Virus genome (UHGV): UHGV-0246887
DNA from: a virus
Length of the DNA stretch: 44,763 bases
Direction: 5' to 3' (one strand)
The notes under the pieces are model-generated. The model was not told the origin of the DNA. It ran no database searches and was given only the letters and a program-made list of their open reading frames with translations. This document shows positions 41,282-41,654 of this stretch, one piece after another. Position numbers and translations under genes: made by a program. Each line of letters begins with the position of its first letter. The first letter of the stretch is position 1.

Positions 41282-41433
41282 CCAAAGTCGAGAGTAAGGC
41301 CACAGGTCTGATCTATCTTGTGGTGTGGGAGGGGAACGGGTGTGTTACGCTCATGTACCCAAAAACAAAAGAGCGCCACACTATAAGCCAATTTACCCTG
41401 AACAAAAACTACAGGAGACTGAGCAAATGTTGA
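41278..41433 (+). CDS. Small hypothetical protein (51 aa)
   Basis: ATGA overlap with previous stop; GGAGA RBS; leader duplicated before next gene. Confidence 0.3.
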   Translation: MTKVESKATGLIYLVVWEGNGCVTLMYPKTKERHTISQFTLNKNYRRLSKC

Positions 41434-41654
41434 TAGGCGGATTCTCGCAGGAGTTTATCTACCTGCATATGTGCGTACTTGACTACGAACAACACGGCAT
41501 CGCTACGGTATGCGATGGAGACACGAAGACTATCGAGGAGATCGAGGACTACACTACCGAGGAACTTTGCGCGATGATGTGTGACCCGCCTGTATGGGCG
41601 AAAGGCTTACCTCCCGCCTTCTGCGGCGGCATCATGAACCGGTACAGGAAGTAA
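41427..41654 (+). CDS. Small protein homologous to the C-terminal ~55 aa of the phage DNA polymerase
   Basis: DYTTEELCAMMCDPPVWAKGLPPAFCGGIMNRYRK versus polymerase DYTTEELCALMCDLPIWAKGFPLAAEGDCMYRYRK (25 of 35 identical by eye); AGGAGA RBS. Confidence 0.5.
   Translation: MLIGGFSQEFIYLHMCVLDYEQHGIATVCDGDTKTIEEIEDYTTEELCAMMCDPPVWAKGLPPAFCGGIMNRYRK

Follow-up and report, generated by a model that had tools for sequence, protein, structure and literature searches.

A rare chimeric allele of a small Dhillonvirus accessory gene carries a captured end of the phage DNA polymerase gene

Tailed phages are known for their mosaic genomes. According to the model of Hendrix and Hatfull, the mosaic gene junctions of these phages are formed through illegitimate recombination at short microhomologies. 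Insertions can also be produced by template switching during replication (copy-choice), as described under the names MMBIR and FoSTeS. Additionally, free-standing homing endonucleases with co-conversion tracts adjoin phage polymerase genes, such as mobE and seg in T4. This work addresses a small gene that can be compared with each of these systems. It is found in a viral genome, UHGV-0246887, whose whole stretch of 44,763 nucleotides is referred to as the window. The gene is an open reading frame (ORF) of 75 amino acids at 41427..41654 (+), and its end resembles the end of the DNA polymerase encoded elsewhere in the same window. The ORF is a rare, chimeric, minority allele of a small Dhillonvirus accessory gene of the family phrog_15977, which is non-essential. 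Its origin is a standard product of phage mosaicism, in which the captured piece, smaller than a gene, came from the phage's own polymerase locus. Our reading, to which we give a probability of about 0.7, is that a single old capture event created this chimeric allele and that its polymerase tail is probably a functionless, tolerated passenger.

The window represents a complete or nearly complete genome of a Dhillonvirus, an HK578-like siphophage of E. coli. Its region 40600-42300 matches 150 phage records, nearly all of them Escherichia or Shigella Dhillonviruses, with phage Zumzum as the best match at 92% identity. The 75-aa ORF lies within a run of small ORFs on the same strand, which extends from the helicase-primase gene (37877-40141) to the lysis genes. 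An Enc34-like SSB is encoded at 33583-34386. In relatives, a small gene is found at the same genomic position, between a gene of 89 aa and a gene of 179 aa. The ORF has a ribosome binding site (RBS) of its own, as was stated in the preliminary description, with GGAG placed 9 nt upstream of the ATG. Searches of the literature returned nothing on this ORF.

Structurally, the PHROG scan divides the product into two separate and unrelated parts. Residues 1-41, here called the N-module (41427..41548, +), match phrog_15977 with E=7e-24 over profile positions 4-44 of 47, and residues 27-75 match the end of phrog_7766, labelled 'DNA polymerase', with E=7.8e-8 over profile positions 137-185 of 186. The family phrog_15977 is one of unknown function, and the ORF belongs to it by a match that runs across the whole conserved module of about 44 residues. 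Within the N-module, C16, Y20 and ATVCDGD are invariant in 23 sequences. The same module is present without any polymerase tail in Zumzum, in Haito_Bas83 and in about 20 protein clusters. The role of the protein would most likely reside in this conserved, acidic module of 41 residues, with its two invariant cysteines. In Pfam there is no family for any of the three allelic forms of the gene (termed P, Z and S below), and the 75-aa ORF shows neither a Pfam match nor the motifs A-C that would place it in DNA_pol_A (PF00476). The ORF as a whole is not a polymerase homologue, and only its last 35 or so codons are derived from the polymerase. The chimera explains a misleading database label, since a 78-aa homologue in vB_Eco_Lzu_P1 (LzuP1) is recorded as 'DNA polymerase I', an annotation artefact caused by the similarity of the tail.

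It had been proposed that the small gene is homologous to the C-terminal motif-C region of the polymerase. This is correct for the last ~35 codons, but not for motif C, as the N-module belongs to phrog_15977. The upstream part had been thought to align weakly with motif C, with the catalytic HDE replaced by CDG. This match is due to chance: the first 40 residues alone give E=0.67 in BLASTP and fall on another segment of the polymerase, and the ungapped DNA identity to the polymerase gene is 35% over the 60 nt upstream of the left junction.

The polymerase gene of the window (31066..33357, -) is intact and encodes a family-A DNA polymerase (PolA) of 763 aa; PF00476 is recorded on homologous products of 763 aa. 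The segment of this gene that is homologous to the captured fragment extends from CGACGA to the stop codon (31066..31177, -), as seen by alignment and in the inverted repeat I1. The polymerase-derived tail of the small gene, made of 35 codons and a TAA (41549..41654, +), is a diverged copy of the polymerase 3' end, on the opposite strand and about 10 kb away, as had been noted. When the 75-aa ORF is compared with the last 51 residues of PolA in a single BLASTP comparison, 27 of the 51 positions are identical (E=1e-15), which places the claimed homology of the two ends well above chance. At the DNA level, the copy is identical to the window's own polymerase gene at 83/112 nt (74%) and to that of Haito_Bas83 at 92/112 nt (82%), which is above the value for its own. 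As first supposed, the copy is not a recent duplicate, because its identity to its own polymerase gene is 74%; with a higher identity to the gene of another phage, it does not have the appearance of a recent segmental duplication. No sign of concerted evolution of the tail with the resident polymerase was seen. In the whole-genome repeat scan, I1 (31067-31183 / 41537-41653; 117 nt, 74%) is the largest inverted repeat in the window. The similarity to the polymerase locus continues for 13 nt beyond the stop codon, reading TAA-GATT-ATGAAAGCA, and blastn matches annotated 'DNA polymerase' / 'hypothetical protein' reach query position 128, which is 41667. The copied segment represents only about 35 residues downstream of motif C and contains no catalytic residues; the P-form tail peptide includes GLPPAFCGGIMNR. 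By comparison with Klenow, we take the segment to be a helix and the terminal strands downstream of motif C, and presumably an internal part of the palm and not a known partner-binding tail.

Given a stand-alone ORF of this kind, one may think of a C-terminal exon or fragment split off from a fractured polymerase, which would complement the main polymerase or be spliced to it. The family phrog_7766, with its 186 positions, resembles C-terminal polymerase pieces. Some Dhillonvirus polymerases are annotated with a group I intron (SO-1) or an intein (Pubbukkers), and the label on the LzuP1 copy points in the same direction. However, the polymerase of the window retains all of its 763 aa with a complete tail of its own, and the copy begins only after motif C, covering nothing of phrog_7766 before position 137. 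The copy is also joined to an N-module unrelated to the polymerase, sits on the other strand at a distance of 10 kb, and has no DNA_pol_A match in Pfam. The 75-aa ORF is not a split-polymerase exon because the polymerase is intact; this, together with the breakpoints mapped below, refutes the idea, and its probability is negligible.

The distribution of the gene among relatives was assessed by tblastn in 50,697 phage records. The full-length form is present in only four other phages, namely vB_Eco_Lzu_P1, slur05, slur06 and P-GXEC-L2P5. For the other gene-carrying records listed, residues 1-31 alone match at the locus, and residues 47-75 match nothing but polymerase genes. A search of 5.8 billion proteins yielded 31 protein clusters, which represent three allelic forms. 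The S form, which is the majority, is 44-50 aa long and ends in ...EEIEETEQ, with a stop codon that overlaps the ATG of the next gene. The Z form is 63-69 aa long and has a Cys/His-rich tail ending in ...DESECNHDHQQEIIVCDKCGTVKL, with a CxH...CxxC pattern that may resemble a zinc knuckle; P0016, P0031 and the phages UAE_MI-01, BEK2-2 and 101114BS4 are examples. In BF9, a deletion has joined a Z form to the downstream gene, of which the C-terminal third is left. The P form, of 67-84 aa, has the polymerase tail and includes P0001-P0007, the window, LzuP1 and slur05.

Among the 102 phage records with the N-module gene, only a handful carry the Z or the P form, and the small gene is missing altogether from about one third of Dhillonvirus records. 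The polymerase tail is absent from about 20 of the 31 protein clusters and from most of the 102 records. No frameshifted or truncated P form is found among the 31 clusters. A pattern search of IMG/VR with CCTGTRTGGGCRAAAG for more P forms gave 66 matches, essentially all of them chance, with one relevant contig. In comparison with the Z and P forms, the S form lacks everything between two AGGAGA repeats, and the removal of 41549-41714 from the window would give the S-form reading ...GAGGAGACAGAGCAATGA. Judging from these repeats, the S form probably arose as a deletion between them, the short form coming from the long one.

The layout of the P form was established from the locus alignments A3, A4 and A5, with the coordinates verified. 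The left recombination junction (41543..41548, +; alignments A4 and A5) is a 6-nt microhomology, which reads CGAGGA in the window and CGACGA in the other P forms, in the Z forms and in the polymerase gene. Its context is GAGATCGACGA followed by AAGC in the Z forms and ACCGACGA followed by CTAC in the polymerase gene, in the same codon phase. After the tail and its stop codon comes the captured junction from downstream of the polymerase gene (41655..41667, +; blastn and alignment A4). It consists of a GATT spacer and ATGAAAGCA, the opening three codons of a 63-aa gene. Spacer and gene follow the polymerase gene in relatives such as Zumzum, Haito and slur05, which have no HNH gene at this place. 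The captured junction is followed by 27 nt of filler (41668..41694, +), for which no source was found: there is no blastn match outside P-form loci in the 50,697 phage records, and semi-global alignment of the filler (27-33 nt) to Z-form interiors and to the 63-aa gene is no better than with shuffles. The next element is a vestigial 3' end of the Z form, GCGGCACGGTTAAACTTTAA (41695..41714, +; ...CGTVKL; alignment A5). In the Z form this is where the reading frame ends, with six codons and the stop, which in the window no longer belong to the main frame; blastn matches 41695-41730 to the Z-form phages UAE_MI-01 and 101114BS4. The RBS and start of the downstream 179-aa gene, GGAGACAGAACAATG, complete the locus (41715-41729, +). 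Recipient sequence is therefore present on both sides of the insert, as the N-module upstream and as GCGGCACGGTTAAACTTTAA downstream.

These junctions, the filler and the vestige are the same in all 9 distinct P-form loci collected, and therefore the capture happened once. The retention of the Z-form 3' end means that the Z form received the polymerase fragment, and not the reverse. In this way, the earlier suggestion that it may be a relic of recombination is supported, as the junctions point to a capture by way of microhomology into a small gene that already existed. As for the mechanism, we infer the following course. The recipient would have been a Z-form allele, composed of the N-module and a Cys/His-rich tail ending in ...CGTVKL. 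A piece of about 120 nt from the polymerase locus of an HNH-free genome would have been joined in frame into the Z tail, bringing with it the polymerase gene's last ~105 nt and TAA, then the GATT spacer and 9 nt from the start of the gene that follows. The left joint would have been made at the 6-nt microhomology CGACGA and the right side with about 27 nt of filler, a pattern typical of illegitimate recombination or template switching. From this single event the allele would have spread through the Dhillonviruses, recombining as it did so. At the point of insertion the Z forms read CGACGAAAGC, in which CGACGA and GAAAGC are both present; the tract with homology to the polymerase locus starts with the former hexamer and ends with the latter. 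Their presence would fit a two-switch copy-choice event, and is suggestive only.

The neighbourhood of the gene is also a product of exchange. As was reported, the 16-nt junction GGAGACTGAGCAAATG, which contains the RBS and the ATG, is duplicated: it occurs exactly twice in the window, at 41265..41280 (+) before a 51-aa ORF and at 41414..41429 (+) before the small gene, where 0.22 occurrences would be expected even allowing 3 mismatches. The downstream 179-aa gene has a near-identical leader, the GGAGACAGAACAATG given above. The 89-aa gene (41012-41281 in the window) stands directly before the small gene in Zumzum, Haito, LzuP1 and slur05. At this place the window is longer by 149 bp, which carry the 51-aa accessory ORF (41278..41433, +; alignments A3 and A5) and are bounded by the two copies of GGAGACTGAGCAAATG. 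This ORF, absent from the four phages just named, is found by blastn in 17 phage records, and in phage 011D5 it stands in the place of the small gene, again with this junction sequence on its flanks. The leader is duplicated because small ORFs are exchanged as cassettes at a conserved RBS-ATG junction, and this Dhillonvirus stretch acts as a cassette array, whose ORFs recombine at near-identical RBS-ATG junctions.

Additionally, the capture brought with it an ATG that starts a mini-ORF of 23 codons (41659..41730, +), which ends in ATGA on the start of the 179-aa gene. It stays open in 9 of 9 P-form loci, two of which have a 3-nt indel. In no frame are its variable positions synonymous, and a random stretch of 14 codons would be open in about half of cases. 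Any role of the mini-ORF in translation coupling would be putative. A regulatory or RNA role of the insert was considered and rejected: the region has no sigma-70-like promoter, 3 terminator-like sites were found in it against 3.0 expected from shuffles, with none in the insert on the coding strand, its RNA folding is not unusual (z-score +0.49), and no Rfam family matches anywhere in the window.

The constraint on the tail can be judged from its substitutions, for which dN/dS was calculated by the Nei-Gojobori method over 30 codons of tail. The tails of five real polymerase genes have a mean dN of 0.04 and a mean dS of 0.61, a ratio of about 0.07. The nine P-form tails have a mean dN of 0.159 and a mean dS of 0.338, a ratio of about 0.47 (pairwise 0.24-1.07), and are roughly 7 times less constrained than the real polymerase tail; for the N-module, dN/dS is 0.24-0.30. 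Counted by column, at least 38 substitutions are needed to explain the P tails, of which 13 are synonymous and 25 are not, and the synonymous excess over neutrality is marginal (p=0.048). The reading frame is intact in all 9 P alleles, with dS among the tails reaching about 0.65. A random substitution creates a stop in 4.8% of cases, and the chance of none in 38 is 0.15. The in-frame indels of the linker are 9-nt changes in an (EEI)n repeat or deletions between direct repeats, and their in-frame state is therefore uninformative on selection. PVWAK, RYR and most of ELCAxMC are invariant among the P tails.

The tails are of two types, the polymerase-like type b, with ...PLAAEGDNMY..., and type a, which is that of the window, with ...PPAFCGGIMN.... 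In the window's allele, the F, L, E, D and Y of GFPLAAEGDxMY, invariant in the polymerase, are replaced. Part of the difference between a and b looks like a single 6-nt micro-inversion, GCAGAG to CTCTGC, plus one step, located between GCC and GGC. Each type is paired with both classes of N-module, and therefore recombination has taken place inside the gene, within the conserved GIATVCDGD core. AF2 gave no confident fold for the P-form alignment, where pLDDT is 54.8 and drops below 50 over tail residues 54-68, nor for the Z-form alignment (pLDDT 49.6).

This evidence bears directly on whether the captured tail has been co-opted, as a new C-terminal module replacing the Cys/His-rich tail of the Z form. 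Such a module could bind, or compete for, a recogniser of the polymerase C-terminus, which might belong to the replisome, to the host or to a defence system as its sensor; it could also interfere with the folding of the polymerase. If true, the protein would stand in for the polymerase C-terminus as a decoy and titrate a replisome partner, or else a factor of the host or of defence. Co-option would agree with a frame kept open in 9 diverged alleles with every indel in frame, with a dN/dS of about 0.5 that is marginally under neutrality, with the invariance of PVWAK, RYR and ELCA, and with the age of an allele that has been recombined onto both N-module classes. On the other side, the great majority of family members do without the tail, its constraint is far weaker than that of the real polymerase tail, and residues invariant in the polymerase have been lost from the window's allele. 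The open frame is likewise expected by chance often enough, the in-frame indels say nothing, AF2 gives no confident fold, and the copied segment is presumably internal to the palm. We consider co-option unlikely. The polymerase-tail mimic put forward in the preliminary description is not supported, given a tail that is missing in most of the family, relaxed constraint and the lack of a confident fold. The old intact alleles, the marginal synonymous excess and the invariant motifs would be compatible with weak selection on the tail. It seems most likely from these substitution patterns that the P tail is a tolerated passenger.

The gene that adjoins the polymerase 3' end is of importance for the second proposal made at the outset, a gene conversion mediated by an HNH endonuclease. 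A free-standing HNH/EndoVII-like endonuclease gene, recognised by PHROG matches, does lie directly after the polymerase gene (30397..31029, -), as described. The same HNH/EndoVII-like gene is found in place of the 63-aa gene, directly after the polymerase, in about 26 phage records. The HNH-linked polymerase alleles have in common a distinct last ~35 nt, including TAG for TAA and an I-to-C change, and the window's polymerase gene is identical to that of Zumzum upstream of this variant block (alignment A8). From its sequence, the variant 3' block has the pattern that would be expected for a co-conversion or target-immunity tract. The junction at the P locus matches that of Zumzum, which is HNH-free, at 27/28 nt, versus 14/28 for the window's own HNH-bearing junction. 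The copy has the HNH-free version, and therefore the fragment was copied from an HNH-free genome. Furthermore, LzuP1 and slur05 have the P form without an HNH gene after the polymerase, and many HNH-bearing phages, among them Gluttony, Lust, Pride and Envy, have the short form. HNH-mediated gene conversion is not supported by these findings, and the copy, being the HNH-free allele with no association between P form and HNH, is probably not a relic of homing co-conversion. Nothing supports an HNH-induced break as the historical trigger of the capture.

The same gene gives room for a role of the captured piece at the level of DNA, as an ectopic target, decoy or landing pad for the HNH endonuclease, or as the repair of a break that it induced. 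The HNH-free polymerase junction would then be the presumed homing or recognition site of the polymerase-adjacent HNH, and HNH-carrying genomes would be forced to mutate this ectopic site, giving the type-a tail. The distinct last ~35 nt of the HNH-linked polymerase alleles would be in line with such a role, as would the nearly unchanged HNH-free junction at the P locus of a genome that encodes an HNH, and the concentration of the extra changes of the type-a tail in its last 45 nt. Against it, HNH presence goes without the P form and the P form without HNH in the phages just named, and none of the 9 P loci has an HNH insertion. The junction also lies inside the captured fragment, whereas a break at the junction would be expected to place it at an end. 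A role at the DNA level is thus very improbable, and that the captured piece is a selected module at all, whether through its protein or its DNA, seems to us quite improbable. The passenger reading is the one retained here.

The feature is an ordinary genomic scar; it is not a second polymerase and not a demonstrated mimic. No new kind of system is revealed by it. Its value is that of a clean worked example of how chimeric small phage proteins are built from pieces of the phage's own essential genes, in which the sequences reveal the donor, the recipient, one breakpoint and the vestigial end of the recipient. Selection on the tail or on the ectopic HNH-free junction, if there were any, would make the feature more interesting, as an instance of self-derived mimicry or of homing-site biology.

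Compared with the known systems, the locus is similar to split phage polymerase genes in being a stand-alone ORF that matches only the C-terminal end of a family-A polymerase. Unlike them, it coexists with an intact main polymerase, and its fragment is without motif C, fused to an unrelated module and on the opposite strand. The arrangement next to the polymerase gene is of the type of T4 mobE/seg, as the HNH gene of the window takes the place of the 63-aa gene and goes together with a variant block in the last ~35 nt of the polymerase gene; unlike in homing co-conversion, the copy within the small ORF has the HNH-free allele and shows no association with the HNH gene. With MMBIR/FoSTeS, the locus shares a short insertion from an ectopic locus, in inverted orientation and with microhomology at the switch point. 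Still, a clean two-switch event leaves the 27-nt filler unaccounted for, and the capture is indistinguishable from break-and-join recombination between co-infecting genomes. The likeness to the mosaicism of tailed phages includes a segment joined at a 6-nt microhomology, with filler at the other junction and the recipient kept on both sides, as well as the sporadic presence of the P form among close relatives and the exchange of neighbouring small ORFs at conserved gene boundaries. It differs from typical phage mosaicism in that the donor is not a foreign module but the phage's own essential polymerase gene, and in that a sub-genic fragment landed in frame, creating a chimeric protein.

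Among the differences between the polymerase-derived tail of the small gene (41427-41654, + strand) and its source is one short block. At 41606-41617, tails of the window's type read GCC-TTCTGC-GGC, where GCC-GCAGAG-GGC stands in the polymerase and in the polymerase-like type-b tails. Reverse-complementing GCAGAG gives CTCTGC, and both TTC, in the window, and CCC, in the P-form protein cluster P0001, differ from CTC by a single step. These sequences suggest that a 6-nt micro-inversion between the inverted GCC/GGC flanks changed AE to FC or PC in a single event.

The locus also holds an optional cassette, a 51-aa ORF at 41278-41433, for which a family search returned no match. 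This ORF is found in 17 phage records; it substitutes for the small gene in 011D5 and stands in tandem with it in the window, and a junction of the GGAGACTGAGCAAATG type always flanks it. In Escherichia phage BF9 (L022, 601-900), a deletion fuses a small gene of the Z form, with its Cys/His-rich tail, in frame to the C-terminal third of the homologue of the 179-aa gene, the next gene downstream, and this fusion is a further chimeric allele at the same locus. The 88.6-kb record PQ843332.1 (Escherichia phage P-GXEC-L2P5) carries a slur05-like P-form locus at 7231-7461 as well as an HNH-bearing polymerase junction at 44529-45349. This spacing is not what a single Dhillonvirus genome would show; the record is probably made of two joined genomes.

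Elsewhere in the window, a non-coding direct repeat of 174 nt is present at 11981-12154 and 40290-40463, in copies that are 96% identical and 28.3 kb apart. The repeat contains six to seven CGGGACA(A/G) motifs and terminates in the GC-rich hairpin AGACGGGGGTCAACGGCCCCCCTCGTCT. The stretches immediately 5' of the two copies (11836-11990 and 40269-40298) contain TGCATAAAC motifs together with GGGACGTCCC palindromes. The repeat has no match in Rfam, and looks like a regulatory region that has been duplicated and heads two gene blocks.

Some polymerase genes of Dhillonvirus are annotated as interrupted, by a group I intron in Sodalis phage SO-1 (L023; gp38) and by an intein in Pubbukkers. Such genes probably explain the 186-position "DNA polymerase" PHROG, which seems to consist of C-terminal pieces.

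In the window, a free-standing HNH/EndoVII-like gene (30397-31029, - strand) follows the polymerase gene and occupies the place of the 63-aa gene of HNH-free relatives. Linked to it is a variant block of the last ~35 nt of the polymerase gene (31066-31100, - strand), with synonymous changes, an I to C replacement and TAG instead of TAA, which is common to the window, SO-1, Shigella phage 1b and BF9. Upstream of the block, the window polymerase is identical to that of the HNH-free Zumzum, and this arrangement suggests a tract of homing co-conversion or of target immunity. Within the small-gene locus of this HNH-encoding genome, 41640-41667 matches the HNH-free polymerase junction at 27 of 28 positions, and that junction is the presumed homing site of the HNH.
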